The notes beneath the pieces were generated by a model that saw only the letters and a list, made by a program, of their open reading frames with translations, did not search any database and was not told the DNA's origin. The position numbers and the translations under genes are program-made. Below are positions 28,796 through 61,521 of a DNA stretch of 64,000 nt, in pieces. The DNA is taken from NCBI GenBank assembly GCA_963835575.1, contig CAWIGG010000004.1, forward strand, positions 832,001-896,000, written 5' to 3'. The stretch is from an uncultured Spirochaetota bacterium. Its GTDB lineage: Bacteria > Spirochaetota > Brevinematia > Brevinematales > JAOACQ01. The first letter of the stretch is position 1. Each line of letters starts with the position of its first letter.

Positions 28796-28991
28796 ACACT
28801 CCTTTTTTTACTATCTTGATATGATTTTCGGTAGAATTAAAAAAAGGTTAATAAGAATGAAGAAATAAAAATAAATATTTGATGATTGACATAAGCCGTT
28901 AAGATGACCCCGATGTGGCAGGATAACCTGGAATTTGAAGGATAATATTATTGGGGAATTTCACTGGAGGTGGGAAGGGGAACGGGGGTTG

Positions 28992-29086
28992 GCCACAGAA
29001 TTTCACGGAAAAACACAGAATTTATAAGATAAAATAAAGGTTTTATTAATATTTTATTTCCGTGAATTTCTGTGTAATTCCGTGGC
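28992..29086. repeat. Inverted pair of 3x10-bp CAC(A/G)GAA repeats
   Basis: GCCACAGAATTTCACGGAAAAACACAGAAT ... TTTCCGTGAATTTCTGTGTAATTCCGTGGC, about 35 bp AT spacer. Confidence 0.85.
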
Positions 29087-29166
29087 AGACTTCTTTTTTT
29101 TTAAGCATGACAGTTCAATAGGGACTCTATAATTAAGTCCCGCGGCTTTAAAATCAAGAGATTATG

Positions 29167-29547
29167 CTATTTTGAGTTTAATTTTTTCATGCTCTTAAGA
29201 TAAGCTGCCACAAAAGCCTTTTTATTTGTTTCATCAAGACCCTGCATAAATTCCCCTGCTTTATTGTTATATTCGGTAAGTTCCAGGGATAATTTGTTCA
29301 TCTTATCGATTTTGGTCTGGTCTTTTGTATTCTGCGCTTCCTTTGATGCCTTGGCGAATAATTTCACAAAAGCATCATACTCTTTCAGCCACTTTTTTGC
29401 CTCTTCCATTGTCACCGGCTTGACGGATGCTGCGGCGCTGGATGTGACAACACTGTTTGTGTTAGAACTGCTGTTTTGTTTTCCGCCGCAGCTCGTAACA
29501 AAAAACGATATGATGACTATTAATATGAATTGTAATGTCAATTTCAT
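29167..29547 (-). CDS. Hypothetical lipoprotein
   Basis: Lipobox-like FVTSC, Ser-rich linker, helical domain. Confidence 0.75.
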   Translation of the reverse strand: MKLTLQFILIVIISFFVTSCGGKQNSSSNTNSVVTSSAAASVKPVTMEEAKKWLKEYDAFVKLFAKASKEAQNTKDQTKIDKMNKLSLELTEYNNKAGEFMQGLDETNKKAFVAAYLKSMKKLNSK

Positions 29548-29841
29548 ATTATCCTCCTGTAAACATATTATAGAAAATAAAAATCCATGAATAGTATTTT
29601 AGATTGAATAGGTGAATTTAGCAAAAAAATAAGAAGAACGTTTTAGAAAAATAAAGATAGGATCATTTGAATAATAATTGAAATTAACTGCCTTTCTAAA
29701 TTTAAAATTTCGTGATGATTGATGTTCCGGAAAAAGGGGGAAATGCGGCAAAGGCTGCCGACAAACAACTGCCCTTATTTCAGAAGGGATCTAAAGACAT
29801 TCTGTCCTTTGTAAAATTTACCGATAGCATATTTCAAAAAA

Positions 29842-30654
29842 TCAGGAATCGAACGTCAAAGCCAGAATAGACGATAAAACGCTGTCAGGCAGATACCTCT
29901 TTGAAAAGTATAAAAATTTGTTAAAAAGGCCGGCCACGACGCGGACAGGAAGCCTTTTTTTATTTATGAGCCTGCCGATCATGACAGCGATTTTCTTTGG
30001 ATCATACCCGTTCAATTCTTCATGTTTCATGTTCTTTATGGACTTTTTCATCCTTTCCGAATAGACCGAGTTCAGGGCGTTTTTGGAAAAGACTCTGTTC
30101 TTTGGAAAATCAGTTCTGGTATCGCCCGGCGCCACTGAAGTCACCTGGATATTATAATGCCTGACCTCAAGCTTTAAAGCCTGCGTGTACACATCTATGG
30201 CCCCTTTTGAAGCGGAATAAAACGACTGGTATGGCACTGTAAAGAGGCCCGCAATAGACCCGATATTAATGATTTTCCCGCTTCCCTGTGTCCGCATAAA
30301 AGGCAGGACTTTTCTGCAGACGCGGCAAAGCCCGAAAAAATTCACATTGAATTGATTGTAAATATCCTCATCACTGCAGTCCTCTATCGCGCCCGCAATG
30401 CCGAAACCCGCGTTGTTGACGACAACATCAATCCTGTCCTGCTGTTTAATGATCTGATCGATACAATTATCGACATCCTGTGGTTTGGTAATATCCAGGC
30501 AGAGAGTTCTGAACTGATCATTAGTAAAGGATAATTCCGGAGAAATATAAGTCCCATAAACAATATGCCCCAGTCCGGATAAATGCTTTGCCGTCGCGTG
30601 GCCTATTCCGGAAGAGGCCCCGGTAACAAGCACAACCTTTGGTTGATTTTTCAT
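29842..30654 (-). CDS. SDR family oxidoreductase
   Basis: TGASSGIG, NNAG, YSASK; ATG at 30654 after GGAG. Confidence 0.93.
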   Translation of the reverse strand: MKNQPKVVLVTGASSGIGHATAKHLSGLGHIVYGTYISPELSFTNDQFRTLCLDITKPQDVDNCIDQIIKQQDRIDVVVNNAGFGIAGAIEDCSDEDIYNQFNVNFFGLCRVCRKVLPFMRTQGSGKIINIGSIAGLFTVPYQSFYSASKGAIDVYTQALKLEVRHYNIQVTSVAPGDTRTDFPKNRVFSKNALNSVYSERMKKSIKNMKHEELNGYDPKKIAVMIGRLINKKRLPVRVVAGLFNKFLYFSKRYLPDSVLSSILALTFDS

Positions 30655-30977
30655 TTTGCTTCTCCTGCATAAATATAAACCGGACAATAAATGATTTGAA
30701 TTTAATATTACTGACAGGTTATATTTAATATGAACCGGATTATTCTACCGTCAGGACAAAAAAAACGCAAAATGTCATAAACAGGAAATCAGGAAAAAGC
30801 TGCTATTTCCGTGTATTTCTGTGTATTTCTGTGAACTTCCGTGGCAGACTTCGCGTCACTTCGGTATTGCTCAATACATAGCTTCCAGTCTTCCTGTGAA
30901 ATTCTATTCTGAGGATCCTGATAAATCCTGTTAATCCCGATTAATTGGGGTCTGATCAATAAAGCATTTGGTAATAA

Positions 30978-31451
30978 TTACTTTTCATACGATATGTCAT
31001 CAGGCAGTTCGTTCACATCATCGCTTTTGTAGGGAAAATGCTTTTTCAATGTCTTGCCGATCTTTTCGATGCCGAATGCTATGCCGCCGGCGAAATCGTC
31101 CTTTTTAAAATATTCCTGCATTTCTTCAGTAATCTTCTTCCAGCTTTTATCGCCCATTTTTTTATGGATGCCGCTGTCGCCCAGGATGGCGAATCTTTTA
31201 TTTTTAACAGCGAAAAAGACAAGGACGCCATTACGAAGTTTGGTTTTTGTCATGCCGATCCGTTCGAAGACAAGGGCCGTTTCTTTCATGATATCTTCTT
31301 TTACGCTTTTAGCGACATGTACACGGAATTCGCCGGAAGTTTCCTTTTCCGCCGCGATGACCGCCTGTTTGATATGCTCTTTCTCGCGGGCCGAGAAAAA
31401 GAGAACCGGATTATTCGAGCGCTTTATTTTGATATTTTTACCAGCTTCCAC
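30978..31451 (-). CDS. TPM domain protein
   Basis: AEKETSGEFRVHV, TKLRNGVLVF, ILGDSGIH, NELPD; probable GTG start at 31451. Confidence 0.88.
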   Translation of the reverse strand: MEAGKNIKIKRSNNPVLFFSAREKEHIKQAVIAAEKETSGEFRVHVAKSVKEDIMKETALVFERIGMTKTKLRNGVLVFFAVKNKRFAILGDSGIHKKMGDKSWKKITEEMQEYFKKDDFAGGIAFGIEKIGKTLKKHFPYKSDDVNELPDDISYEK

Positions 31452-32277
31452 TTGACCCTCCTCCGCCGAAACTTCCGCCCCCGCCGCCGAAGCCGCCTCC
31501 GCCTCCCCAGCCGCTGCTGCCACCGCCGAACCCGCCGCGCGAGCGTCCGGATAAAAGAATATAAAATAAAAGCTTTATAATAGCAAAGGTAATACTGAAT
31601 ATGATCAGCCATTCGATAAATGAATAGCGCTGCTGATAATTTCTATGGCTTGAAGCGTATCCGCCGAAGCGGAATATGTCTATGAGAAAGAGAAAAGCGA
31701 TAAAACCGGCTATGATCAGCGCGATCTGTGTGATCTTCTGCTTATTCAAGCCGTAAAAGCTGGTATTTTCTTCTTCCGCGGGAGGAGCTTCCCCGCCGGA
31801 TATGACTTTTATGATCGAGTTTACGCCTTCTTTAATACCGCCGGCGTAATCGCCGGTTTTAAAGCGGGGCGCTATGACATTGCGTATGATGGAGGAAGCA
31901 TCCGCGTCGGGCAGAACATCTTCCAGGCCGTAGCCGACCTCGATCCGCATTTTCCTCTCGGTAATAAAAGCCAGAAGAATGACGCCGTTATCCTTGCCCT
32001 TCTGCCCGATCTTCCATTTTTCGGCAAGATGAATGGAAAAATCCTCCAAAGATTCACCCTCAAGCGATGGGAATACCGCCACGGCGATCTGAATACCGGT
32101 ATTATCCTCAAAAGCCTGAAGTGTTGAATTTATATCAGCTTTACTTTCCTCGCTCATTATCCCCGCCCAGTCGCTCACGCGGCCGAGGGGAGCCGCCGGA
32201 ATTTTGAGGGAAAACGCCGGCAGGCTTTGTATTAGAATAAATAGTATTAATAAAGAAATGCGTTTTATATATTTCAT
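31438..32277 (-). CDS. TPM domain (YgcG-like) membrane protein
   Basis: WKIGQKGKDNGVILL, RIEVGYGLE, Gly-rich tail ending GGSSGSW. Confidence 0.92.
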   Translation of the reverse strand: MKYIKRISLLILFILIQSLPAFSLKIPAAPLGRVSDWAGIMSEESKADINSTLQAFEDNTGIQIAVAVFPSLEGESLEDFSIHLAEKWKIGQKGKDNGVILLAFITERKMRIEVGYGLEDVLPDADASSIIRNVIAPRFKTGDYAGGIKEGVNSIIKVISGGEAPPAEEENTSFYGLNKQKITQIALIIAGFIAFLFLIDIFRFGGYASSHRNYQQRYSFIEWLIIFSITFAIIKLLFYILLSGRSRGGFGGGSSGWGGGGGFGGGGGSFGGGGSSGSW

Positions 32278-32373
32278 AAATATCCTTGTCTTAGAATCAA
32301 GATAATTGTAAGAAGCTACCCCAAGAGTCCCTTTTCTACTATCAGCAGTGTCTCAAAGAATACCAATAATTCT

Positions 32374-32500
32374 TTGTGTCCATTCGCGTGGATTAACGGA
32401 TTGATTGGTCTTCCGCTAAGCCACACGAAGACACGCTAATGAGAATTTATTTTCAAATTATTCAATTTCCTTCGCGTCTATTCGCGTGTATTAGCGGATT
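32374..32500. repeat. Inverted (CGCGAA/CGCTAA)n repeat cluster
   Basis: TCCGCTAAGCCACACGAAGACACGCTAA vs TTCGCGTCTATTCGCGTGTATTAGCGGA, plus an extra copy at about 32374-32400. Confidence 0.7.
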
Positions 32501-32529
32501 ATCCGTCCTTATACCGGTTTTAAGCACCG

Positions 32530-33138
32530 TTACTCAAACTTTACCTTCGGGGCTGTTTTGGCGCCTTCCTCGGCCTGGAAATAGGCTTTTTCCTGGAAGC
32601 CTCCCATATTGGCTATAAACATGGCCGGGAAGCTTCTGCGGAACGCGTTATACTGCTGTGCGGCCTCATTATAGCGCATTCTTTCCACAGTGATGCGGTT
32701 TTCCGTTCCTTCCAGCTGGGACTGGAGGTCCAGGAAGTTTTCGTTCGCCTTTAAATTGGGATAATTTTCCGTCACGACAAGAAGCCTGGAAAGCGCGCCG
32801 GAAAGCTCGCCCTGAGCGGCCTGGTATTTCTTAAAGGCTTCCGGGTTATTAATGATGCTTTGATCGATCTTGATGGACCCGACGCGGCTCCGGGCGTCAA
32901 CGACGGCCTGGAGGGTTTCACTTTCGTGTTTTGCGTAGCCTTTCACCGTTTCCACAAGGTTCGGGATCAGGTCCGCGCGTCTTTGATAGACGTTTTCCAC
33001 CTGCGCCCAGGCGGATTTCACGCCTTCGTCCATATTCACAAGCTTATTGTAATTTCCCGGCCCGACGCAGTAAACAAATCCGCCTAGAATTATGATAACG
33101 CCGAGAATGATCAGGCCGGTCCTTATGCCTTTACTCAT
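32530..33138 (-). CDS. lemA: LemA family protein
   Basis: YQRRADLIPNLVETVKGYA, ENYPNLKA, LEGTENRI. Confidence 0.95.
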   Translation of the reverse strand: MSKGIRTGLIILGVIIILGGFVYCVGPGNYNKLVNMDEGVKSAWAQVENVYQRRADLIPNLVETVKGYAKHESETLQAVVDARSRVGSIKIDQSIINNPEAFKKYQAAQGELSGALSRLLVVTENYPNLKANENFLDLQSQLEGTENRITVERMRYNEAAQQYNAFRRSFPAMFIANMGGFQEKAYFQAEEGAKTAPKVKFE

Positions 33139-33364
33139 ATTATTACTCCTTTTTAAAATCAGACTGCTTTAAATTTACATTAAATAATGTTTAATATCAA
33201 GTGAAACGGGTGATTTAGAGTAATTTTTACCCTTTGATAAAGATAGATTGCTTTATAAAAAAATGAAGGCGGTAAAATTCTCTTTAATATTATTCTAAGT
33301 CCCTTTAAATGACAAGCATAGTTCAAAAATGAAAAAATAATATTTTTGAATGTAATATTGTATA

Positions 33365-34561
33365 TTATTGCTTGTTTTCAAGAGATTTTAATAAAACATA
33401 AAGTCTTACCAGTCTGTTATTAAAAATATATTTGCCTTTTTCATCTCCAGATTTTAACACATTAAGTTTTTTCATTCTTTGCAGGAAATTATTAAATTTT
33501 CGTTTTTCCTGCTCAGTTAATTTATCCTCAATATCTGCTTTTTTAAAAGACAAATCAAAACTTTCTTTTCCTAATTTAGATAAAATTGAATGATAATCAC
33601 CGCTTCTTAAAGCTTTATAAACCTGCTGATCAACGAACTTTCTTCCAATATCTTCCGCGCTTAAAATTATTCCATTTATGACAACTTCTTTATTAATAAC
33701 AGGTTCTTGAGCAAGCCAGTAGATATTATCACCAATTATATGCATGATTTTAGGAAAACCTGCGGAGTAATGTATTAATTCCGACATACCCGCTTCTTCA
33801 ATAGTCATATTTGCGGATTGGAAAGATTTTTGATAAAAATCTTTCATTTCCTCTTTTAACATTGGTTTAATTTCAACAATATCAAATATCCTTTCAATCG
33901 GCTGGTGATTCAATATCATTTCTCTTCTTCTTTCTTCGACCCCGCTAAGCATTAATAAAAGAGGGAGAGGCTGCCGACTTAATGCGTTTTCATCAACTAA
34001 ACTTTTAATAAAATGGGCGAATTCCCTATTTTCAGCAATTCCGTTTATTTCATCAAGGATTAAAAAAATTCCTTTGATACCATCTTCTTTTACTCTATTA
34101 TATAGTTCATTTAAAAAAGGCAGGAATCCTTTTTGAAAATTCAGAGCATCTGTCTTTAATACATCAAAATTAATACTAAAACCGAAAATCTCCTGTTTTC
34201 CTATGTATTTAGATAAAAAATTCCTTATTTTTTCCGATGTAGTAGGCTTATATACATCCCTTTGAATAATTTCTATTAAAATTTTCTCGGTTGTTTCAAT
34301 AACGTTTTTTGCTCCTCCTAAGAGGACATGAATACCTAATAAATTATTTATTTCCTCTGCGAAATAACGCATAAAGCCTGCTAATGAGCTTTTGCCAATG
34401 CCATATTCACCTGTTAAAAATATATATTGCGGTTTACCAAGTTCTACCTGTTTAATAGCTCTGGTAATCCGCTGTATTTCATTACTTCTACCAACAAAGT
34501 ATTCTATTGGAACAGGTTGTCCAGGGTAAAATGGACTCTTACCCTTATTAATTAATTCCAT
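33365..34561 (-). CDS. Standalone P-loop ATPase (archaeal-ATPase/STAND-like), AT-rich
   Basis: SPFYPG..FVGR, GEYGIGKSS, LILDE, AGFP; probable C-terminal wHTH. Confidence 0.8.
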   Translation of the reverse strand: MELINKGKSPFYPGQPVPIEYFVGRSNEIQRITRAIKQVELGKPQYIFLTGEYGIGKSSLAGFMRYFAEEINNLLGIHVLLGGAKNVIETTEKILIEIIQRDVYKPTTSEKIRNFLSKYIGKQEIFGFSINFDVLKTDALNFQKGFLPFLNELYNRVKEDGIKGIFLILDEINGIAENREFAHFIKSLVDENALSRQPLPLLLMLSGVEERRREMILNHQPIERIFDIVEIKPMLKEEMKDFYQKSFQSANMTIEEAGMSELIHYSAGFPKIMHIIGDNIYWLAQEPVINKEVVINGIILSAEDIGRKFVDQQVYKALRSGDYHSILSKLGKESFDLSFKKADIEDKLTEQEKRKFNNFLQRMKKLNVLKSGDEKGKYIFNNRLVRLYVLLKSLENKQ

Positions 34562-34705
34562 TTAAAACCTCTTATACACTGAATAATTAATAATATTAAA
34601 TTATTTTAATATGATGTAATTAAACAAGCAATAAAATAAAAGTATTTTTTGTTTTAATATATAATATAAACCATAAAACTTGTTTGATCAAATTGGGATA
34701 AATTT

Positions 34706-36526
34706 ATGATTCAGGTTCAGGGAATAAAAAAATCCTACGGCTCGCAGATGCTTCTGGATAATGTCAGCTTTAATATCAACGCCGGCGAGCATATCGGCCT
34801 CATCGGCAGGAACGGCCATGGAAAAACGACGCTTCTCCGGATCATAGCCGGCATGGAAGAACCGGATTCGGGCTCCATAACCATACCCCGGAATTACACC
34901 ATCGGCTTTTTGGAACAGCAGATAAAATTCATGGAATCGAGCGCGCTGGGTGAAGCAAGCCTCGGACTTTCGGAAGAACACAAAGGCAATACCTGGATGG
35001 CCGAGAAGATCCTTTCAGGCCTCGGGTTTTCCGCGGAGGACATGGAAAAAAAGCCTGTGCTCTTTTCGGGCGGTTACCAGGTCAGGATACAGCTCGCGAA
35101 AGTCCTTGTCGGCGATCCCAACCTCCTGCTTCTGGATGAACCGACGAACTACCTGGATATTGTTTCCATACGCTGGCTGATCCGCTTTCTGCGCGATTTG
35201 AAAAAAGAGTTCATTTTAATTACCCATGACCGGAGCTTTATGGACAGCGTGACGACGCACACGATGGGCATCCACAGGAAGAAAATACGCAAGATCGAGG
35301 GGCCGACGGAAAAGCTTTATCAGCAGATCATAAAGGAAGAAGAAGTTTATGAAAAGACCCGCGTGAATGACGATAAAAGACGGAAGGAAATAGAGCTCTT
35401 TATCACCCGGTTCAGGGCGAAAGCAAGGCTGGGCGGGCTGGTGCAGTCCAGGGTCAAGCTCCTGGAAAAGAAGGAAAAGCTCAATAAACTCGAGAAAATG
35501 AAAACGCTGGAATTCTCTTTCAGGGAAGCACCGACCGACGCGAAGTGGGCGGTCGAAGCGAAAAACACATCTTTTTCATATGATGGGAAAAAGCCATATC
35601 TTATCAATAATTTTAACCTGATCGTCGGCAAAAATGACAGGATTGGGATTGTAGGCAGGAACGGGGCCGGTAAATCGACATTAATGAAGCTTCTGGCCGG
35701 CATCATGACCCCGCTGGAAGGGGCTGTCAAAAACCACCCTCAGATCAGGATGGGTTATTTCGGGCAGACGAATATCGAACAGCTCAATGAGTACAGGACG
35801 GTTGAGGAAGAGATCGCCGCTTCCCATCCCGAACACGACCGCCAGGCCGCCCGGGACATCTGCGGGGCGATGCTCTTTGAAGGGGACATGGCGCTCAAAA
35901 AAATATCGGTTCTATCAGGCGGCGAGAAAAGCCGGGTCCTTCTCGGCAAGCTTCTGGTTTCACCCACGCACCTTCTATTATTAGATGAGCCGACGAACCA
36001 CCTCGATATGGAATCATGCGATTCGCTGATTGCCGCGCTGGATTCCTTCAACGGCTCCGTGATCATTGTGACGCATAACGAGATGTACCTGAACGCTCTG
36101 ACAAACCGCATGGTCATATTTGACCGGGATAAGATCACCCTTTATGAGGGGAATTACCAGGACTTTCTGCATGATATCGGCTGGTCGGGCGAGGATGATG
36201 GGAGGAAAAAGGAAGAGATCAATCCGGCCAGTAAAAAGGCGATCCGGAGGGCCCGCGCCGGGATCATACAGGAAAAGTCAAAAGTCCTGCGGCCGATGGA
36301 AGAGAAAATCCGGGAAAAGGAAAATGCGATCCATCAGCTGGAAATGGAAATTAAAGATGACAATCAGCTGGTGATTGAAGCTTCCATCAAAGGGGACAGC
36401 GCCGGGATCGCTCAGCTTTCAAAAAAAATCAGCGATGCCCAGTCAAAGCTGGACCTGTTCATGAAAGAATGGGAAGACCTGCACACAAAGTATGAAGAGG
36501 AAATGAAGAAATTTGAGATTGATTGA
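34706..36526 (+). CDS. ABC-F family ATPase
   Basis: Two ABC domains (GRNGHGKT, GRNGAGKS, LLLDEPTN x2), no TM segments, coiled-coil tail. Confidence 0.93.
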   Translation: MIQVQGIKKSYGSQMLLDNVSFNINAGEHIGLIGRNGHGKTTLLRIIAGMEEPDSGSITIPRNYTIGFLEQQIKFMESSALGEASLGLSEEHKGNTWMAEKILSGLGFSAEDMEKKPVLFSGGYQVRIQLAKVLVGDPNLLLLDEPTNYLDIVSIRWLIRFLRDLKKEFILITHDRSFMDSVTTHTMGIHRKKIRKIEGPTEKLYQQIIKEEEVYEKTRVNDDKRRKEIELFITRFRAKARLGGLVQSRVKLLEKKEKLNKLEKMKTLEFSFREAPTDAKWAVEAKNTSFSYDGKKPYLINNFNLIVGKNDRIGIVGRNGAGKSTLMKLLAGIMTPLEGAVKNHPQIRMGYFGQTNIEQLNEYRTVEEEIAASHPEHDRQAARDICGAMLFEGDMALKKISVLSGGEKSRVLLGKLLVSPTHLLLLDEPTNHLDMESCDSLIAALDSFNGSVIIVTHNEMYLNALTNRMVIFDRDKITLYEGNYQDFLHDIGWSGEDDGRKKEEINPASKKAIRRARAGIIQEKSKVLRPMEEKIREKENAIHQLEMEIKDDNQLVIEASIKGDSAGIAQLSKKISDAQSKLDLFMKEWEDLHTKYEEEMKKFEID

Positions 36527-36571
36527 TGCTGTTAATAAAGTTTAAAATTATTAATTCTGATATTATAATAT

Positions 36572-36751
36572 TTGGAATAAAATGTTACAGGAAGTAAGGA
36601 AGCCGGGAAGAAATTAATAGTTAAGGATAAAAGTTGGAAGATTGTCTTATATTAATAATCCAGATTCTTAATTAATATATGAATGCTTGGAAATTTAATT
36701 GAGATACTTGTTTTTAGCGACCTTCCCGCCTTCCAGTCTTCCTGTAAAATT
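36572..36751. repeat. Inverted (GGAAG)3 repeat pair around ~105 bp AT-rich spacer
   Basis: TTGGAATAAAATGTTACAGGAAGTAAGGAAGCCGGGAAG ... CTTCCCGCCTTCCAGTCTTCCTGTAAAATT; same motif at about 51509-51550 and 30881-30903. Confidence 0.75.
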
Positions 36752-36773
36752 AAAGATTTGAAGAGGAGTCCGT

Positions 36774-38177: not shown

Positions 38178-38234
38178 ATATATTTAATAAAATTATGACA
38201 GGAGAGATCGAATAAAATTTAGTTCAATTGAGCA

Positions 38235-38263
38235 TTGACATTTTGGGTTAATGTCAGTATACT
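38235..38263 (+). promoter_or_regulatory. sigma70 promoter
   Basis: TTGACA-17 nt-TATACT. Confidence 0.8.
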
Positions 38264-38271
38264 TCATATAT

Positions 38272-38406
38272 AAGGGAAGAGCAGGTTTTCAAACCGGGCC
38301 TCCTTGAGAGGCAGTAGAAATAAAGAGCTTTTCTACAGGACTTCCTTCAATTTAAAATGTTATGAATTGGAGCGGTCACAGGTTGTGAAAGTTGTTGTTC
38401 CCTTTT
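38272..38406 (+). ncRNA. Candidate structured RNA (sRNA or 5' leader), family not recognised
   Basis: Long 5'/3' closing stem enclosing three hairpins; begins at the predicted TSS and ends in a U run. Confidence 0.5.
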
Positions 38407-38473
38407 CTCATTTTTCACCCCGCCCGGAATGTTTTTTTATTTTGAATCCATCTAAGTGAATTGAAAGGTTTAT

Positions 38474-39448: not shown

Positions 39449-39484
39449 AAAAGATATCCGGTAAAAAAAGATAAATTGGCCCGT

Positions 39485-51456: not shown

Positions 51457-51468
51457 ACACATTTAAAC

Positions 51469-52052
51469 GACCCCAATTCGGCAGGATCAGCAGGATTTGT
51501 CAGGATTCTTGGAATAAAATTTCACAGGAAGACGGGAAGGCACGAAGGGAAATTAACGTCACTTTATTTTTAATTGGAAATGTTCATCATAATTTCTTTG
51601 TGGTAATATCCGATGGTGCACACGGATGATGCAGGTAATGTGGATTTGCACGGATCTTGGGATTGGGTACGACTGAGGTAACCACAGATTTCACAGATTA
51701 CATAGACAGGGAGCGAGGAATCGGAGGAAATTGTTTTGGAGTTGCGCACTGTGAACAAGGTATAGCCTCCTCCTAAAATCCCTATTCACAAATGTCCTAT
51801 ATCATATCCGGCTTCGAATAAAACTTTACAGGCATCGTTAAGTAATACTAAATCCTATAAATCCGCCTTCATCCATGCAATCTGTGTGAAATGGGGTCGC
51901 TCATTAAGCTTTAATAAAACAAAAAGGACATCTCAATCAAAATCTCTCATCTACCGGGCGTAGCCCCCGATTTCAGTCCTTTCCGTGAAATTCTGTGGTA
52001 GACTTCGCGTTTTCCTGTATAATTCTAAAAAAAATCCTGATTTATTGGGGTC
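51469..52052. mobile_element. ~585-bp non-coding element with GACCCCAAT...ATTGGGGTC ends and nested repeat modules
   Basis: Left 72 bp match the reverse complement of 30881-30952 at 59/72 (hand alignment); inner module 51608-51898 matches the kinase flanks. Confidence 0.6.
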
Positions 52053-52165
52053 AATACTTAAAAGAATTTTAAAGGACAGAACTTTTCTTAATTTATTTTT
52101 GAATTTAAATTCAATCATTTGTATAATTTATACAATTGATTTATATTTTTATCAGGAATAGTATA

Positions 52166-53500: not shown

Positions 53501-53506
53501 TTCTCT

Positions 53507-53671
53507 TTATGCCCGGCCGGCCACGCTTTTCATGTACTTCTTCGGTTTTTTAACAAACAAATCCCGGCAATCCTTAGAACAGAAATAATAAGTCTTGTCG
53601 ACAATTTCGATTTCGGCAAACGCATCCCATTTTTCCAGTTCCATTCCGCAAACGGGATCTTTTTCTTTCAT
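53507..53671 (-). CDS. YHS/TRASH domain small protein (54 aa)
   Basis: Not in ORF track; GGAGG RBS; MKEKDPVCGM...TYYFCSKDCRDLFVKKPKKY. Confidence 0.9.
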   Translation of the reverse strand: MKEKDPVCGMELEKWDAFAEIEIVDKTYYFCSKDCRDLFVKKPKKYMKSVAGRA

Positions 53672-53788
53672 AAAAACCTCCATCGATTAGATTATTTAAA
53701 TTATAATTCCAGAAACTGTTTGCGTCAAGGCGGTACAACATTTGTTTCTATGCGTTAGAGGCCGGGTAAAATAACAATGCTATTGATT

Positions 53789-53832
53789 TAAGGGCAGTTC
53801 CAAAAACTTTAAGGTTTTTGGAACTGCCCTTA
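53789..53832. repeat. 19-bp perfect inverted repeat
   Basis: TAAGGGCAGTTCCAAAAAC-6 nt-GTTTTTGGAACTGCCCTTA. Confidence 0.85.
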
Positions 53833-53961
53833 TAATAATTATTGCTAAAAAACGAATAATTTATTATAATATCCAGTTAGAGTTCATTGTCCCATAGAAG
53901 ATTAGATCAATATTCACATCACTTAAAAATCACTGCATTTCTCTAATCCGAGGAGGAAAAC

Positions 53962-54450
53962 ATGTTTGAAAAGAAAGAAGCGGCTGTTCACCTGACCGAA
54001 AAACTCATCGCCTTTATTGATAAATGGAAACATGTGGAAGGCAGTTTGATCATGATCCTGCACAGCGTTCAGGAAGAATACGGCTATATACCGCGTGAAG
54101 TCGCCCTTCAGCTGTCCAGGATGCTGAACGTCCCCCTGGCGAAAATATACGGGGTTATCACGTTCTATCATTTCTTCAAGCTTAAAAAGCCCGGCAAATA
54201 TAATATAGCCGTCTGCATGGGGACGGCCTGCTACTTAAAAGGCGGAGAGGACATCCTGAACGAGCTGGAAACGCACCTCGGGATCGGCGTGGGCGGCATT
54301 ACGGAGGACAGTCTCTTCTCACTGGAAGCTGTACGGTGCGTCGGCTGCTGCGGCCTTTCCCCTGTGCTGACGATCAATAACGAAGTATTCGGGCGGCTGA
54401 CAAAAAAGGGAATACCGGAAATCCTCTCAAAATTCAAGAGTAAGGTATAA
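53962..54450 (+). CDS. [FeFe]-hydrogenase NuoE-like subunit (HydC/HndA)
   Basis: VCMGTACYLKG, VRCVGCCGLSP. Confidence 0.92.
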   Translation: MFEKKEAAVHLTEKLIAFIDKWKHVEGSLIMILHSVQEEYGYIPREVALQLSRMLNVPLAKIYGVITFYHFFKLKKPGKYNIAVCMGTACYLKGGEDILNELETHLGIGVGGITEDSLFSLEAVRCVGCCGLSPVLTINNEVFGRLTKKGIPEILSKFKSKV

Positions 54451-54464
54451 AAAAGGGGGTTATT

Positions 54465-54854
54465 ATGTCAAAGCTGAATTTAAAGTCCCTGCAAACATTA
54501 AGGGAAAATGAAAAGAAAAAAATAAAGGATAAATTGTCGGAAGGTAAATTAACGACCATTTTGGTCGGCATGGGCACATGCGGCATAGCCGCCGGCGCGA
54601 AAGAAAGCATGAAGACCTTCATCGAGCAGGTGGAGAAAATGGGGCTGAAAGATGTGGAGGTCAAACCGACCGGGTGTATGGGGAGCTGTTTCGCGGAGCC
54701 GACCGTGGAGGTCATTTCTCCCGGTATGCCGGCCGTTCTTTACGGCAGAGTCACGCCGGGAACGGCAAAAAAAATCCTGGAGCGGCATGTTGTCCAGAAG
54801 CTGTTATTGAACGATAATATTTTTGACAAACCGGCGATGGATATTTTGAAGTAA
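54465..54854 (+). CDS. Thioredoxin-like [2Fe-2S] subunit (HydD/HndB)
   Basis: VGMGTCGIAAGA, TGCMGSCFAEP. Confidence 0.9.
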   Translation: MSKLNLKSLQTLRENEKKKIKDKLSEGKLTTILVGMGTCGIAAGAKESMKTFIEQVEKMGLKDVEVKPTGCMGSCFAEPTVEVISPGMPAVLYGRVTPGTAKKILERHVVQKLLLNDNIFDKPAMDILK

Positions 54855-54872
54855 AAGGGGGCAGTCAATCAT

Positions 54873-56659
54873 ATGACATATAAAAAGTATGTTCTTGTCT
54901 GCGGCTGCGCGAACTGCGACAAAAATAACTCGCATGAAATTTATGAAAATATCAATAAAGAACTGATCGCGGAAGGATTAAAGGAAGAAGTCCAGGTGGT
55001 CAAGGCCGGCTGTTTCGGCTTCTGCGGACAGGGGCCTGTCGTGAAAATACTTCCCGAAGAAACGATGTATGTGCATGTCGGGCCGGGCGACGCCGCGGCG
55101 ATTGTCAAAGAACATCTGAAAAATGGAAAGGTTGTAGCGCGCCTTCTTTATGATAAGAGTTTGAGCAGGAAGAACGTCAAAATTAAAGACATGGATTTTT
55201 ATCAAAAGCAGTTCCGCATCGTTTTGCGCAACTGCGGTGTGATCAACCCGGAAAGCATAAATGAATATATAGCCCGCGACGGGTATAAAGCCCTGGAAAG
55301 GGCGTTGTTTGAAATGAAGCCCGGTGATATTATCGAGGAATTGAAAACCGCCGGGCTCCGCGGCAGGGGCGGAGCGGGCTATCCGACATGGAAAAAATGG
55401 GTCCTTACAAAAGATGAGAACTCGGACATCAAGTATGTCGTCTGCAACGCGGATGAGGGAGACCCGGGCGCCTATATGAACCGGAGCACCATCGAAGGCG
55501 ACCCGCACAGTATTCTCGAGGCGATGACTGTCTGCGGCTATACTGTCGGCTCCCATAACGGCTATATCTACATCCGCGCCGAGTATCCGCTTGCCATTCA
55601 AAGGCTGGAAATAGCGATAAAACAGGCGCATGAGCTGGGGCTCCTCGGCAAAAACATCCTCGGAAGCGGTTTTGATTTCGACATCGAGATCCGCCTCGGA
55701 GCGGGAGCGTATGTCTGCGGAGAGGAAACGGCGCTGATCGCTTCCATAGAAGGGAACAGGGGTATGCCGAGGCCCAGGCCTCCATTCCCTTCAGCAAAAG
55801 GGCTCTGGAACAAACCGACCGTGATCAATAACGCCGAAACCTGGGCTAATATTCCCGTCATCCTGACAAAGGGCGGGAAGTGGTTCTCGTCTATCGGCAC
55901 AGAAACATCGAAAGGAACAAAGGTTTTCGCTCTGACGGGAAAGGTCAATAATTCCGGCCTGGTCGAGGTCCCGATGGGGACAACTTTGAGGGAAGTGATT
56001 TTCGACATCGGCGGCGGAATAAAAGACGGCAGAGAGTTCAAAGCGGCCCAGAGCGGCGGGCCTTCGGGCGGCGTCATTCCGGCGGAATATCTGGACACGC
56101 CCATCGACTATGAGAATCTGCAGAAACTGGGCGCCATCATGGGCTCGGCGGGCTGATCGTCATGGACGAGGACGACTGCATGGTCGACATAGCGAAGTTT
56201 TACATGCAGTTCGCCGTGGACGAGAGCTGCGGGAAATGCTCGCCTTGCCGGATCGGGGGAAAACAGCTTCTGGAAACCCTTGAGTTGATCAGTAAAGGAA
56301 AGGGGCAGATGGAGCACCTGGCCAACCTCAAAAGGATTTGTTTCGCGATGCAGAAGGCCTCTCTCTGCGGACTGGGGCAGAATACGCCGAACCCGGTGCT
56401 TTCCACGCTCAAGTATTTCGAGGGCGAATATATCGACCATATTCAGAATAAGAAATGCCATTCCGGATCATGCAAGAGCCTTATCAGCTTTGTTATCGAT
56501 CCTGAAAAATGCATCGGCTGCGGCCTCTGCGCCATGAAATGCCCGGTGAACTGCATCGGCGGTGAAAAACGGAAGCCCTATACGATCGATCAGATCGAGT
56601 GCATCAAATGCGGCGAATGCTTTGAAGTCTGCAAATTCGGCGCCGTGATCAGGCAGTAA
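54873..56659 (+). CDS. NuoF-like diaphorase subunit (HydB/HndC), split by a one-base frameshift at about 56147-56152
   Basis: GLRGRGGAGYP, CNADEGDPG, YVCGEETAL; GAIMGS|GGLIVMDE interrupted; ESCGKCSPCR and 2x[4Fe-4S] in the second frame. Confidence 0.88.
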
Positions 56660-56789
56660 CAGCAAGTTGCAATCAATATTAGAGCAACTTTGTTGTGCGG
56701 GACTCGGCTCTGACTTACGAAAGTGTTTCTCTGCCGGGGAAAGAGCACAACAAATAGCTGCTTTTTGATTGCAAGATAAAGGGGGAAAT

Positions 56790-58550
56790 ATGGAAAAGAT
56801 AAAGAAGATCAATGTAAAAATAAACGGCATACCGGTCAAAGTTGACGGTAATTCGACCATTCTCAACGCGGCCAGGCTGGTCCAGGTGAACATCCCAAAA
56901 CTCTGCAATCATCCCGACCTTCCGCCGAGCGCGGCTTGCGGGCTCTGCATTGTGAAGATCAAAGGCTCGTCCAAAATGGTCCGCGCATGCGCGACCGCTG
57001 TCGAAGAGGGAATGGACATCACGACGCACGACCCGGAATTATTCGGGGTCAGAAGGACGGTGCTCGAGCTGATCCTTTCCAACCATCCGAATGACTGCCT
57101 CCAGTGCGCCCGTAACGGCAACTGCGAGCTCCAGCAATTGGCGGGCGATTTCGGGATCAGGGAAGTGGACTTCTCTCAGATGCTGGTGAACCATCCCGTC
57201 GACAATTCGACCGGTTCGATCGTCCTGAACCCGGAAAAATGCGTCAAATGCGGTAGATGTGTCGAAGTCTGCCAGATCATGCAGCACGTCTGGGCGATCG
57301 AGTTCATCGGCAGGGGATATAACATGAGGATCGCGCCCGCCGCGGACACGCTTCTGAAAGACAGCCCATGCATCAAGTGCGGACAGTGTACGGCGCACTG
57401 CCCCGTCGGCGCGCTGTATGAAAAAAGTGATAATGTCCGGGTCTGGCAGGACCTGGAGAACCAGGACCTGCATAAAGTCGTTCAGATCGCGCCGGCAACG
57501 CGCGTGGCTCTGGGCGAGGCGTTCGGGCTGGAACCCGGCGCCGTGACGACAAAAAAAATGTACACGATTTTGAGAAGGCTCGGGTTTGACGCCGTTTTCG
57601 ACACAAACTTCGGTGCAGACCTGACTATAATGGAAGAAGCCTCCGAGTTTGTCCAGCGGTTTGGAAAGAAAAAGGGCGATCTGCCGCTTATCACGAGCTG
57701 CTGTCCCGGTTGGGTGGACTACCTTGAAAAATTCTATCCCGAGATGATCCCGCATTTTTCGACGGCAAAATCCCCTCATCAGATGGTGGGCGTCCTGTCC
57801 AAAACCTATTACGCGCAGAAGATGGGAATAGACCCGGCCAAAATATATATGGTGTCGATCATGCCCTGTACGGCGAAGAAGTATGAGATCAGCCGGACGG
57901 ACGAGATGTTCGCGAGCGGCTACCAGGACATCGATGTCGTGCTGACGACGCGCGAGCTTTCCAGGATGATCAAGGCCTCAGGCATCGACTTCCTCAATCT
58001 GCCCGATTCCGAGGCGGATTCGATCCTGGGCGACTATTCCGGGGCGGCGACGATCTTCGGCGCCACGGGCGGCGTTATGGAAGCGGCGCTGAGGACGGCC
58101 TACCACCTCATCACGAAAAAAGAGCTGGGCAATGTGGACTTTGTGGAAACACGGGGGCTCAATGGAATAAAAACAGCGAAGGTCGATATAGAAGGAAAGG
58201 AAGTGAAGATCGCCGTGGCGCATGGACTTGCCAATGTCGAATTTATTATGGAAGAGGTCAAGGCCGCGCAAAAGGAAGGCAAAGAACTTCCCTATCATAT
58301 CATCGAAGTGATGGCATGCCGCGGCGGGTGCGTCGGCGGGGGCGGACAGCCCTACGGCGCGACGGACGAGATCCGCAGGAAGAGGGCCATGGGCCTCTAT
58401 GAGGACGACCGCGAAAGCATCCGGCGCTGTTCGTACCAGAACCCGTATATCAAGGAACTGTACGACGAATTCCTGGGGACGCCGTTGTCGGAAAAGGCGC
58501 ATGAGCTTCTGCACACGCAGTACCATGAAAGGCCGCTGTATAATAAGTAA
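56790..58550 (+). CDS. hydA: [FeFe]-hydrogenase catalytic subunit, group A (HydA/HndD)
   Basis: H-cluster motifs TSCCPGW, MPCTAKKYE, EVMACRGGCVGGGGQP; N-terminal FeS domains. Confidence 0.95.
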   Translation: MEKIKKINVKINGIPVKVDGNSTILNAARLVQVNIPKLCNHPDLPPSAACGLCIVKIKGSSKMVRACATAVEEGMDITTHDPELFGVRRTVLELILSNHPNDCLQCARNGNCELQQLAGDFGIREVDFSQMLVNHPVDNSTGSIVLNPEKCVKCGRCVEVCQIMQHVWAIEFIGRGYNMRIAPAADTLLKDSPCIKCGQCTAHCPVGALYEKSDNVRVWQDLENQDLHKVVQIAPATRVALGEAFGLEPGAVTTKKMYTILRRLGFDAVFDTNFGADLTIMEEASEFVQRFGKKKGDLPLITSCCPGWVDYLEKFYPEMIPHFSTAKSPHQMVGVLSKTYYAQKMGIDPAKIYMVSIMPCTAKKYEISRTDEMFASGYQDIDVVLTTRELSRMIKASGIDFLNLPDSEADSILGDYSGAATIFGATGGVMEAALRTAYHLITKKELGNVDFVETRGLNGIKTAKVDIEGKEVKIAVAHGLANVEFIMEEVKAAQKEGKELPYHIIEVMACRGGCVGGGGQPYGATDEIRRKRAMGLYEDDRESIRRCSYQNPYIKELYDEFLGTPLSEKAHELLHTQYHERPLYNK

Positions 58551-58567
58551 CACTGCAGAATGAAGCC

Positions 58568-58673
58568 GTCCCTTCGCAAGCTCAGGGCAGGCTATTGCGA
58601 GCGGAAATTTATCGTCATCGCAATAGTTTTACGCGCGAAGCAATGGTTCGACAGGCTCACCACGGCGTCTGTC
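58568..58673. repeat. Composite REP-like element
   Basis: GTC[CCTTCGCAAGCTCAGGGCAGGCT]ATTGCGAG...CGAAGCAAT[GGTTCGACAGGCTCACCACGGCG]TCTGTC; backbone matches the left half of 25339-25482. Confidence 0.65.
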
Positions 58674-58719
58674 AGCTCATTAAGGTTTTTTATCAGCAAA
58701 CAAAAAAGAGAGGTATATA

Positions 58720-59484
58720 ATGTTCGAATCCGTAAAATCAAGGATCAGCCATGGTTTTCCATACATTCCGAATATCCGGAAAGCGGGTGTGGACGAAAAA
58801 TTCCGCGGTCTTCCATCATTAAAGAAAAATGTCTGTAAAGACTGCTCATCGTGCGTCGAGGTTTGCCCGACCGGGGCCATCTCGCTTAAATCGTTCAGGA
58901 TAGACATCGGCAAGTGCATCTTCTGCGGCGACTGTGAGAGGGAGTGTTCAAAAGGCGCTGTAAATTTTACACCATTTCATAAAACGGCAGCCTCATCGCG
59001 GGAAGCCCTTATCGTTTCGGAAGGGGATTCTTCCGCCGATTTCGAGAAGAAGGCAATACAGATAGACGAAAAGATACGAAGTATCTTCGGAAGGTCGCTG
59101 AAGCTCCGGCAGGTCTCGGCCGGCGGATGCAGCGCCTGCGAGATGGAGCTCGGCGCCTGCTCGAACGTCAATTTCGACATGGGGCGCTTCGGCATCGAGT
59201 TTACCGCCTCCCCCCGCCATGCGGACGGGATCGTCATAACCGGGCCTGTAACATTTAATATGGCTGAAGCCCTGGAAGACGCCCTGAGCGCAGTGCCGGA
59301 ACCGAAGCTCATCATCGCCGTGGGAAGCTGCGCGATCAGCGGCGGGATTTTTCAGGACTCGCCGGCGATGAAGAGGGATTTTTTCGAGAAGCATAAAGTG
59401 GATTTGTATGTGCCGGGATGTCCCATCCATCCTTTGACGTTTATCAACGGACTGCTGGATTTTACAAGGGGCAAAAGGGATTAG
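58720..59484 (+). CDS. Fused 2x[4Fe-4S] ferredoxin + NuoB/HycG-like subunit
   Basis: CKDCSSCVEVCP, CIFCGDCEREC; AGGCSACE, SPRHADG, AVGSCAISGG, VPGCP. Confidence 0.88.
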   Translation: MFESVKSRISHGFPYIPNIRKAGVDEKFRGLPSLKKNVCKDCSSCVEVCPTGAISLKSFRIDIGKCIFCGDCERECSKGAVNFTPFHKTAASSREALIVSEGDSSADFEKKAIQIDEKIRSIFGRSLKLRQVSAGGCSACEMELGACSNVNFDMGRFGIEFTASPRHADGIVITGPVTFNMAEALEDALSAVPEPKLIIAVGSCAISGGIFQDSPAMKRDFFEKHKVDLYVPGCPIHPLTFINGLLDFTRGKRD

Positions 59485-59689
59485 CCACGAGGCACGGAGG
59501 ATGGGCTACGCCTGACAGATAAAAGCTCTATACTATGAATTCCTTTCTGTTTTATTAAAAATCATGATTCAATCCCAATTTCACACAGATTGCACGGATG
59601 AGGCGGATTGACGCGGATTATCTGTAGTAACTTATGTTTTGGCTTTTTCTAAAAAAACACTTTTTCAACAATCTCGTAAAGCGGCGAAA

Positions 59690-61216
59690 TTACGCTAAAA
59701 GTAGACGTAACCACTTCTCTATTTCAGCATTTTCAAGTTTTTTCGTTTCTACTTCTCGTACATGCATAGCAACTCTAGAGAGATTATATTCATTATAGAA
59801 TTCGTTACTATCCAAAGCGTAATTTTCTTTATGCGGTCCACGAACTAAAGCAGAATCTTTAAATATAGCAAAATACCATTCTCCATAAATATCATCTTGC
59901 TTTTCTTTCCTTAAAATCAAATTCACGGAATATTCGTTCTTTGTACCACTTAAATTCATCACCCCAACCAAAATTATCAGTTCTTTATCGAAAATTATAC
60001 CTTCAGGTTCTTGCATAACCATTCCATATTTTTGTTTCTGAAATTCTATAGATCTTCTTCTTCGTTCATCTTTATAATTAGCAATCCCATTCACATCAAA
60101 AAATGATATATCTAATGCTCGTTCCATAAAAGATACTCTTAGACTTTCTAAATTATTTCTTTTCCCATTTTTTATGATGAATTTTGCATTTTCTAAGTTT
60201 TTGTTCACAGACTCAACTAGAGAACATACAGAATTAATCAATTCATTGATAGAATAATTTAAATATCGCAACTTCTCCTCATGTTCATCTTGTCTCTTTG
60301 AGCTTTTTGCCAATTCCTCTTCTTTTTTTCTAATAAGCTGATGAGCCATACTAGCAATCGACGTAGCTATATTCGCGTCTTTTGTATTACTTTTAAGAAA
60401 ATCGTTAAGACTCTTAAGTATTTCTTCATCATTTTTATATCGCTGGTCCTTTTTTTTATTTGACATCTTTATGATTATTTCTTTTAATTTTATAGGAACA
60501 TCGCTTCTATTTGTACTTAAATCCGGTAACGGTTCAAATAGATGACACTGTCTATAATCTTGTGGTGTTGCACAAATATAGGGTTTCTTAAGTGTTAAGA
60601 TTTCAAAGAACATTATCCCCATTGAATAAATGTCCATTGAAATCGTATTTGCTTCTCCAAGCCATGCTTCAGGAGACATATAAGCATAAGTCCCTGCACC
60701 TTTAAAAGAGAATGTTTTTGTTGATTCATCTACATATTTTGACATTCCAAAATCGCAAACCTTAGCTGTGCCATCCACATCAATTAATATATTATTCGGC
60801 TTCAAGTCTCTATGTATCACTTTTTTATGAGCATATTCCAATCCTTTCAATATATCTGTAAAAATACTATAGCATTTATCCAAAGGCAACATAACCTTCT
60901 GCGTTTTTAGAAATGCATCTAGGCTGCCATTAGGCATATATTTCATTACCAAATAAAAATAATCACCCGCATCACTTTCTCCAGAATAGTAAGTACTTAT
61001 TATATTAGCATGTGCTAGTGTGGCGGATATATCTATTTCTCTTTTTAAGGTTTGTCTATATTGCTCATCAAAGATAGGGGCAATTTTTATTGCCACTTTC
61101 GTTTTATTTATTAAATCATCAGATAGATAGACGTCGCCAAATCCACCTGCATTAATTTTTGTACCAAGCTCATACTGTTCACTGCTTTCAGGACCTCGTA
61201 ATTTATTCATGACCAC
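59690..61216 (-). CDS. Hanks-type Ser/Thr protein kinase with unknown C-terminal domain, AT-rich
   Basis: GGFGDVY, VAIK, HRDLKPNN, DFG, GTYAYMSPE, DIYSMG; no TM segment. Confidence 0.93.
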   Translation of the reverse strand: MVMNKLRGPESSEQYELGTKINAGGFGDVYLSDDLINKTKVAIKIAPIFDEQYRQTLKREIDISATLAHANIISTYYSGESDAGDYFYLVMKYMPNGSLDAFLKTQKVMLPLDKCYSIFTDILKGLEYAHKKVIHRDLKPNNILIDVDGTAKVCDFGMSKYVDESTKTFSFKGAGTYAYMSPEAWLGEANTISMDIYSMGIMFFEILTLKKPYICATPQDYRQCHLFEPLPDLSTNRSDVPIKLKEIIIKMSNKKKDQRYKNDEEILKSLNDFLKSNTKDANIATSIASMAHQLIRKKEEELAKSSKRQDEHEEKLRYLNYSINELINSVCSLVESVNKNLENAKFIIKNGKRNNLESLRVSFMERALDISFFDVNGIANYKDERRRRSIEFQKQKYGMVMQEPEGIIFDKELIILVGVMNLSGTKNEYSVNLILRKEKQDDIYGEWYFAIFKDSALVRGPHKENYALDSNEFYNEYNLSRVAMHVREVETKKLENAEIEKWLRLLLA

Positions 61217-61295
61217 TTTTACTCCCTCATATGAAATTTGTATTACGTCTTACTTCATATAAGCAAATTTAATATATGTGAATTTTCTCCCCTTC

Positions 61296-61324
61296 ATCTT
61301 AATAAAGCCCAATTCACCTGTCAA
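61296..61324 (-). promoter_or_regulatory. sigma70 promoter for the kinase
   Basis: TTGACA-17 nt-TAAGAT just inside the repeat end. Confidence 0.6.
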
Positions 61325-61521
61325 GACCGATATCGGGACGCAATAATCTGATCCGTGAAAATCCGCATCATCCGCCTAATCCGCGTGCCGAATCGGATCA
61401 GTACAATAAGGCGGCAATTATTATAGAATTACAATAGCTTAACAAAGGCATTGAAATGAAATAATTCTCTGTGCCCCTGTGTCTCGATAGCGAATTCTCT
61501 GTGGCGGTTTATCCTGTAATT

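Follow-up and report, generated by a model that had tools for sequence, protein, structure and literature searches.

Mapping short periodic repeats across a 64,000-nucleotide window of an uncultured Spirochaetota bacterium (contig CAWIGG010000004.1, positions 832,001 to 896,000; G000:C4:832001-896000 in our labels) and across its source genome (G000; 4.39 Mb, 94% complete), we found that arrays of short words, here called arms, form nested inward-facing brackets around lineage-specific genes, and that unpaired arms point at AT-rich genes, mostly through a single family, CGGAT. The latter finding is new here. The arms are genuine and no artefact, and they can be assigned to no described family. 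Their layout and polarity, the empty orthologous sites in congeners, the promoter modules shared between brackets, and the homology of brackets by halves are observed directly; a nuclease family found beside arms, GxxExxY, may be what opens the brackets to incoming DNA. M (the motif GACCCC), PA, PE, and the G, P, and L numbers are labels of this analysis.

Profiles of ten arm families, seeded from periodic words and applied with a cutoff of at least 13 bits, detect at least 713 arms in the genome, while the reversed genome gave three matches at 12 bits or more and none at 14 bits or more. This number is a lower bound, since further periodic words, CGCAAAG/CGCAGAG (20) and CACCAAG (12), both with control counts of 0, lie outside the ten profiles. 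Open reading frames (ORFs) of at least 150 amino acids cover 80% of the genome yet contain only 9 of the 713 arms. Same-family neighbors less than 300 bp apart face inward in 157 of 188 cases, with 13 outward and 18 direct. The nested inward-facing pairs that the original prediction had described from the letters of the window alone recur throughout the genome, and the orientation of neighboring arms is not random. Its spacing of 9 to 10 bp, about one helical turn, was right as to regularity, but the period is a property of each family: 9 or 10 bp in AGGAT and CGGAT, 9 in CGAAG and CAGAT, 10 in CACxGAA and CGCGAA, 8 in GGAAG, and 7 in TTAGC. One helical turn is therefore only an approximation, and the phasing is loose. 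A strict outer-to-inner order of families was rejected because reversals occur beside the 111 of 134 adjacent arm pairs that follow the majority order.

Closed clusters are depleted between divergent genes (13 of 126, versus 462 of 1802 long spacers). Empty hairpins are commonest in the CGCGAA, CAGAT, and CACxGAA families, which rarely face cargo, and are seldom formed by CGGAT arms, which often do. No transposase or integrase was matched by any of the 50 window ORFs scanned, in line with the original prediction, but the genome itself has many insertion sequence (IS) copies, tyrosine recombinases, and reverse transcriptases, along with one gene resembling a REP-associated tyrosine transposase (RAYT; REP, repetitive extragenic palindrome). 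IS copies and miniature inverted-repeat transposable elements (MITEs) made of IS ends are found inside arms and cargo. The arms matched no Rfam family, and locus 4 of the window matched no plasmid record; we found no published description of arms or enclosed cargo in a search that left most subscription papers and supplements outside. A short motif of the GGCAGGCTCACCACAAG type sits between units of AGGAT, CGGAT, and CAGAT arms, with 14 of 14 copies near arms (for example, G000 C2:481012, C2:1037578, and C3:118053), and an element of about 110 bp with CAGACTGTGTGAAAA ends is inserted within it. Several paralogous RHS-like genes (G000:C4:1037076-1062066) carry a CGCGAA arm within the coding frame. 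TTAGC arms number 40, some in rRNA operon spacers, and the genome's single gene for a four-helix bundle of the 23S intervening sequence (IVS) type (G000:C6:1988-2589) lies within their 7-bp arrays.

The direction in which arms point was compared with G+C content at third codon positions (GC3), counting values below 0.28 as low (226 of 3472 genes). Open stacks, i.e., those without a partner, point at a low-GC3 gene in 54 of 243 cases and have one behind them in 4 of 243; among genes beside closed hairpins, only 3 of 252 are low in GC3. CGGAT arms face such a gene in 29 of 74 cases versus 19 of 169 for the other families (six GxxExxY ORFs omitted; p 2e-6). Consecutive unbalanced stacks less than 2 kb apart include 23 facing and 2 averted pairs (n = 42, including same-direction pairs). 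Seen from the cargo, 19 of 122 low-GC3 islands have inward arms on both sides and 22 on one side, and only 4 have outward arms alone.

The enclosed genes are lineage specific and enriched for foreign and defense-type genes. A family scan of 51 mechanically called ORFs from 20 hand-picked loci yielded a second kinase, a Type IIG restriction enzyme, a DNA methylase, YafQ-like and HEPN/MNT toxin-antitoxin genes, Panacea, ImmA/IrrE with DUF4411, DUF2971, IS transposases, and many ORFs without any family. An enrichment for AT-rich or defense genes, which the original prediction had listed for testing, is seen genome-wide, but in the window low GC3 fits the kinase of locus 5 (GC3, 0.24) and not the two genes of locus 1 (0.45 and 0.52). 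Cargo junctions are ragged. Both G000 and G008 have Type IIG enzymes next to arms, but the relationship between these enzymes is distant. A fixed cargo orientation was rejected, since CGGAT cargo lies upstream in 14 cases and downstream in 15. Carriage by phages was also rejected, the eight viral matches being chance-like, mostly in coding DNA and in seven cases without a partner arm, as was capture by reverse transcriptase, given that none of four genomes of the other arm-rich family has an RVT_1 match.

Two homologous sigma-70-like modules, PA and PE, recur just inside arms on the 5' side of cargo. PA (TTGCA-n-GTATAAT) has eight matches in the genome, six of them behind an inward arm and five before a low-GC3 ORF, and the generic TTGAC-TATAAT pattern used as a control lies behind an arm in 5 of 130 cases. 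Six of eight gathered PE copies stand behind a CGGAT arm, including one before the kinase of locus 5, and their homology stops about 25 to 40 nt beyond the -10 box. Seven ORFs downstream of such modules are mutually unrelated (no cross match at E 0.01). Judged by sequence, this suggests that some arms carry a candidate promoter module driving whichever ORF follows.

Brackets are related by single ends. Comparing 24 brackets of the window and the genome list at a threshold of at least 90 bp shared, we found 31 of 276 pairs that share one end only and 2 that share both. No target-site duplication was seen in the flanks of 126 closed clusters, the longest word shared by the 40-nt flanks averaging 5.49 versus 5.34 after shuffling, in agreement with the original prediction. 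Arm pairs are polar, with two end subtypes that are more alike within a subtype (0.75 to 0.87) than to their partners (0.69 to 0.75), GGAAG excepted. Partner arms are 69 to 83% alike, no more than permuted partners, which is easier to reconcile with separate binding arrays than with a maintained stem. In four families, the likeness of own partners even falls below the permuted value; we do not claim conserved mismatches, however, because the polarity assignment may be imperfect and Hymenobacter arms are near-perfect.

One cargo family was followed beyond this genome. A 176-aa protein (L023:208-738; G000:C4:357108-357638) lies in a bracket that separates a response regulator gene from that of its sensor kinase; its family has no Pfam match and 455 homologs, the named ones from Bacteroidota. 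Arms lie beside none of the 80 homologous genes examined in context (the best 80 of 543 confirmed metagenomic matches, 39 to 61% identity). A locally shared cargo pool may exist, given that the closest homologs, P0003 (85%) and P0004 (75%), fall outside those 80.

Empty and filled forms of orthologous sites, which the original prediction had proposed to look for, do occur. The pairs polA|dprA, alaS|pgsA, and dinG|ftsK, bracketed in G000, are adjacent in all four congeners; the site of a gene beside dnaN is likewise closed in three and purE|ugd in one. Across these five sites, arms occur at 0 of 20 congener loci, where G000 holds brackets of 1.0 to 4.4 kb, and the enclosed genes are not syntenic core; at several sites, a spacer of less than 60 bp is replaced by bracket and cargo. 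In the window, the fliK|TPM site of locus 1 is a 122- to 143-bp spacer in two of four congeners, matching the window minus its 2047-bp bracket, and holds different, arm-free genes in the other two. The lemA|TPM site of locus 2 is closed in four of four congeners and the ABC-F|cysS site of locus 3 in all three with both genes there. Taken together, seven tested sites have their flanking genes adjacent and without arms in most of the congeners or in all of them. Around locus 5, the neighbors differ in all seven relatives viewed, locus 4 gave only 38 to 40% matches, and a two-component site gave no match at 1e-60 in this search. In G006, cysS is in two pieces with an in-frame TGA (L206; G006:C9:403948-405338).

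The CGGAT pattern occurs 42 times in G000 and in none of the four congeners, and of 401 genomes in the phylum, 16 have its M-CGGAT form, which is multicopy only inside the order. Among 19 M-CGGAT loci of relatives, 18 of them scorable (three own loci and eight single matches outside the order were dropped), the inward gene is more AT-rich by more than 0.15 in six and the outward gene in two. Foreign genes are faced by this arm in a second family of the order as well, and G015 has a clean CGGAT bracket around a PIN-like toxin gene (family read from sequence). One cargo family is arm-facing in G022 and bracketed in G000 (39% identity), and of 23 low-GC3 ORFs found close to arms in relatives, only 3 match a low-GC3 gene of G000, at 32 to 39% identity. 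Searching GTDB genomes returned 92 CGGAT stretches from many phyla; among the 80 listed with DNA examined, an inward partner lies within 250 bp in 33, at 250 to 700 bp in 6, and further away in 3, with none in 38, and 4 have outward partners. Three of the six pairs at 250 to 700 bp hold a PF13366 gene.

PF13366 is the GxxExxY family (TIGR04256), whose genes are, according to the original prediction, flanked by similar periodic repeats in other bacteria. All nine such genes of G000 adjoin arms, of the CGAAG, CGCGAA, CACxGAA, CAGAT, and GGAAG families, and seven lie within a same-family inward pair of 60 to 700 bp; AGGAT, CACxGAG, and the M motif were not found around any of the nine. Outside this genome, Balneolales, Hymenobacter, and Luteimonas have GxxExxY genes bracketed by CGGAT arms. 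Across 13 aligned members, E31, D71, E81, and K83 are invariant, and a structure model (pLDDT 91) is nearest to Cas4 SSO0001 (E 1e-4, TM 0.54), followed by lambda exonuclease and other PD-(D/E)XK enzymes. GxxExxY/PDDEXK_3 is a widespread nuclease family with function listed as "unknown" (PMC3424549).

Our preferred account, which we put forward tentatively and short of an expectation that it is right, is that GxxExxY proteins recognize the arrays and open the loop between them, repair by annealing or invasion brings in half-stacks and promoters, and the opposite end takes up foreign DNA. In this one lineage, ends of GxxExxY elements would have multiplied and, scattered over the genome, come to form a network of polar slots. 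An arm pair would land first, at a gene end, and later DNA (another arm pair, a foreign gene, then an IS) would enter inside the pair and never beside it, which would produce nested brackets. CGGAT arms with the M motif would be the usual cargo-facing end, and some of this type would bring a promoter module that drives the next ORF. As modeled, the GxxExxY protein would bind the word arrays and cut or resect within the loop; strand-annealing repair, or invasion at another arm copy, could then import half-stacks, promoter modules, and cargo, with foreign DNA joined at the other end of the opened loop. Recombination between dispersed arms would copy stacks between loci as half-brackets. Such opening and repair would explain inside-only insertion, nesting, one-sided brackets, ragged junctions, and absent duplications. 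In its favor are the arms beside all nine GxxExxY genes and the layout that one of these shares with locus 1, the CGGAT brackets around such genes in other taxa, the polarity toward low-GC3 genes, the arm-free congener sites, the promoter modules before unrelated ORFs, the one-ended homology of brackets, the invariant residues and fold of the nuclease, and the arms that face foreign genes in the other family of the order. Binding, cutting, capture, and movement are the inferred steps of this account.

Several observations weigh against this account. The main cargo-facing arms, CGGAT/M, flank none of the nine GxxExxY genes of G000; moreover, M-CGGAT arms occur in G008 (99% complete), where no GxxExxY gene was matched, and five GxxExxY genes in G002, which lacks the CGGAT pattern. 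Arm copies are related, so p-values overstate, and the inward excess is gone for stacks 2 to 6 kb apart (19 versus 14). The AT-rich polarity is weaker in relatives than in G000, and 77 of the 122 foreign islands are armless. The arm-free inserts at fliK|TPM indicate that this site is permissive anyway. The PA and PE patterns were derived from the loci they describe, i.e., after the fact, and two PE copies stand without an arm. We observed neither a sharp cargo junction nor a circle nor a mixed allele. Reads of one run, with a small share, came as short exact pieces; no listed joint in them spans a bracket, and they are uninformative on empty alleles.

The arms could instead be passive landing pads, REP-like selfish repeats whose fragile or harmless AT-rich loops receive DNA deposited by host repair, recombination, or ISs. 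Points in its favor are the REP-like depletion between divergent genes, the arm-free inserts at one and the same site in congeners, the IS copies and IS-end MITEs inside arms and cargo, the ragged junctions, and the armless homologs of the 176-aa protein; we regard it as rather unlikely. The families richest in empty hairpins seldom face cargo and CGGAT does the reverse, and neutral landing does not predict shared promoter modules before unrelated ORFs. The original prediction had favored a nonautonomous unit of bracket and cargo with fixed ends, excised and reinserted in trans, its cargo pool shared between hosts. An empty four-arm composite duplicated whole (81% over 357 bp) would fit such a unit, as would the replacement of short spacers by bracket and cargo, the direct arm copies on either side of the locus 1 cargo, such as a single crossover would leave, and the cargo family shared with G022. 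However, ends are shared singly, 31 against 2, no target duplication is present, 0 of 80 cargo homologs have arms, few low-GC3 ORFs near arms in relatives have counterparts here, and the viral matches are chance-like, which makes this unit distinctly improbable.

Action at the RNA level, as in 23S rRNA IVSs, would have the arms pair and RNase III remove the insert from an operon transcript, so that insertions are tolerated. The sense strand has more G-U than A-C oppositions (121 versus 79), and 34 of 44 CGCGAA pairs are aligned with transcription, which leaves some room for a role in RNA or single strands; locus 2 also folds better than shuffles (z -4.1), and the 7-bp family flanks the genome's one IVS-type gene. 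Against this, permuting the partners leaves their likeness no lower, shuffled versions of locus 4 fold just as well (z -1.0), many cargo sites sit between convergent genes and so have no common transcript, and the spread of the arms is left unexplained; we consider this rival very unlikely. Least probable of all is movement of the arms by a RAYT-like Y1 enzyme or an IS transposase of the genome. The RAYT-like gene does lie just inside a CGCGAA arm, and an arm lies no more than 300 bp from 29 of 208 multicopy intervals, but this gene scores 66.5 against a family cutoff of 80 and has its own, different flanking palindromes, and the arms are word arrays without 14-bp palindromes, with neither duplication nor IS-like terminal repeat.

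If GxxExxY proteins open the brackets as we propose, their family would gain a candidate substrate, the word arrays, and a testable role, opening slots for incoming DNA. Through the repeat network, the genome would then have gained a large part of its small foreign islands, by a route apart from integrons, ISs, and phages, and brackets would mark candidate defense genes, including restriction-modification, toxin-antitoxin, ImmA/IrrE, Panacea, and kinase genes and many unknown ORFs. A bolder version is conceivable, though on the doubtful side: an integrase-free, dispersed capture system in which GxxExxY opens its own brackets and ORFs, many of defense type, join behind the bracket promoter, serving about one-third of small foreign islands (an inward arm adjoins 41 of 122). 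It would do the integron's job by new chemistry and give PF13366 a function. Should capture be passive, the arms would still be an undescribed repeat class that sharply orients the landing of foreign DNA.

The five bracket loci of the original prediction all lie in the window where it had placed them (Table 1), and its hand count for the homology of 51469-51540 with the reverse complement of 30881-30952 was exact. Its inventory was right in layout, but loci 1 and 2 each have three arms and are not simple pairs. Through its third CACxGAA arm, locus 1 has its cargo flanked by two direct arm copies, in the order arm, cargo, arm, short loop, and inverted arm; a GxxExxY cassette at C2:377246 has the same three-arm layout, with the nuclease gene in place of the two locus 1 genes. 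The outer stacks of locus 1 have a calculated duplex energy of -105.7 kcal/mol versus -56.5 ± 6.7 for shuffled partners. An M-AGGAT-GGAAG outer stack is common to both ends of locus 1 and the left of locus 4 and is truncated at the right of locus 4; three of these four run on into a CACxGAA arm. What had been called decayed filler at locus 4 is instead a copied stack, 51763-51987 being 84.5% identical over 226 bp to an arm stack at C4:995844-996069. Two sets of arms fell below the 13-bit cut, the CACxGAG arms at locus 5 and, on the left of locus 1, the degenerate AGGAT/GGAAG arms; they were placed by alignment, motif match, and duplex energy. The kinase domain of locus 5 scores with the defense-kinase profiles mad6 and PD-T4-6, as a generic kinase; no homolog of its C-terminal half was found, residues 250-508 matching only itself, with no Atlas match, and none of 101 pattern matches for relatives in genome contigs was confirmed.

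Table 1. Arms, cargo genes, and candidate promoter module at the five bracket loci, in window coordinates
Feature	Position	Strand	Basis or remark
Locus 1, outer left stack: M, degenerate AGGAT arm, GGAAG-like arm	28906..28980	+	Alignment, motif match, duplex energy
Locus 1, left CACxGAA arm	28989..29026	+	39.5 bits
Locus 1, CACxGAA arm closing short AT loop	29051..29093	-	Direct copy of 30814-30852, 35/39
Locus 1, cargo: 126-aa probable lipoprotein	29167..29547	-	Lipobox-like N terminus read from sequence; weak, sub-cutoff DUF6568; GC3 0.45
Locus 1, cargo: short-chain dehydrogenase (SDR)	29842..30687	-	GC3 0.52; best congener match 35-37%
Locus 1, CACxGAA arm, 5' side of cargo genes	30804..30852	-	Profile scan
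Locus 1, outer right stack: GGAAG arm, AGGAT arm, M	30881..30952	-	59/72 to 51469-51540
Locus 2, three CGCGAA arms	32365-32401; 32407-32448; 32463-32504	-; +; -	252-bp lemA/TPM gap; profile scan
Locus 3, inward GGAAG pair, 8-bp period, 23% GC loop	36581..36751		Between ABC-F gene and cysS
Locus 4, left stack	51469..51708	+	M-AGGAT 51469-51510, GGAAG 51518-51549, CGGAT 51605-51651, CAGAT 51678-51708
Locus 4, right stack	51763..52052	-	Copied module with CGGAT arm 51857-51897; GGGCTACGCC motif 51957-51966
Locus 4, right stack, rest	51968-52006; 52032-52052	-	CACxGAA arm; truncated M-AGGAT
Locus 5, left stack	59484..59620	+	CACxGAG arm, GGGCTACGCC motif 59503-59512, M-CGGAT arm 59572-59620
Locus 5, cargo: Ser/Thr kinase	59690..61216	-	32% GC, GC3 0.24
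Locus 5, candidate promoter module PE (TTGACA-17-TAAGAT)	61293..61329	-	Homologous to seven other genome copies
Locus 5, right stack	61355..61507	-	CGGAT arm 61355-61398, CACxGAG arm 61460-61507

Elsewhere in the window, an abutting inverted repeat of the AGGGCAGTTCCAAAAAC type (53782-53839) is near-identical to sequences elsewhere in the genome and resembles paired IS ends or a MITE. A NiCo riboswitch match (38267-38345, + strand; 38.8 versus a gathering score of 37) precedes a glycosyl hydrolase 26 gene and no metal transporter. Positions 1-2200 hold a diverged tandem duplication involving a TMEM164-family gene (1281-bp spacing, 79% over 227 nt), a NuoF/HydB-like hydrogenase subunit is in two ORFs of 427 and 165 aa (54873-56659), and a RecJ-like gene (4832-7093, - strand) has a DEDDh exonuclease domain of the RNase T type between its DHH and DHHA1 parts.

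The arms are spread like REPINs (REP doublets), hold cargo and candidate promoters like integrons, flank DNA like MITEs and the integron mobilization unit (IMU), and place a gene in a loop like IVSs, but they lack a defining feature of each. Integrons combine an IntI integrase, attC sites that move with the ORF, and cassette ORFs behind a promoter of the element. Like them, the brackets hold small foreign, often defense-type ORFs, some of them behind a module that may be an element-borne promoter, and direct arm repeats occasionally surround the cargo. Unlike them, arm slots are dispersed, cargo lies within an inverted pair in either orientation, and cargo homologs occur elsewhere without ends (in the one cargo family followed). 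No integron integrase in G000 exceeded the cutoff, the best TIGR02249 match scoring 213.7 versus 265 (15 of 18 XerD-like matches, three same-score duplicates omitted).

The remaining comparisons concern known systems as set out in the cited sources; the literature compared also includes 10.1101/2021.01.26.428298. MITEs and the IMU (PMC3184786) likewise have noncoding inverted ends, no internal transposase, and the ability to flank cargo, but here target duplication is missing, the two ends are nonidentical, and they are exchanged singly. ORF-bearing 23S rRNA IVSs (PMC4990558) share a small ORF in a loop of complementary ends and tandem word repeats by the start codon; the window loci, in contrast, lie between protein genes and have imperfect arms and variable cargo. 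The TAACTGA heptamers of Beggiatoaceae (PMC4679880), for which protein binding or a part in rearrangement was proposed, are also abundant intergenic sets of short-period repeats, but they are direct repeats with no inverted brackets, nuclease gene, or cargo in the part of the description available. REPIN-RAYT and REP systems (10.1101/2021.07.10.451892, PMC3733652) resemble the arms in having hundreds of extragenic inward doublets with variable spacers, placed near 3' ends and rarely between divergent genes, and in their link to a gene for a small nuclease that has such repeats on its own flanks. However, a REPIN is two inverted REPs, each a palindrome of about 14 bp, and its RAYT is a single-copy HUH/Y1 enzyme, whereas the arms are direct words with a period of 7 to 10 bp, their linked gene is a multicopy PD-(D/E)XK nuclease, and their families nest and enclose kilobases of cargo.

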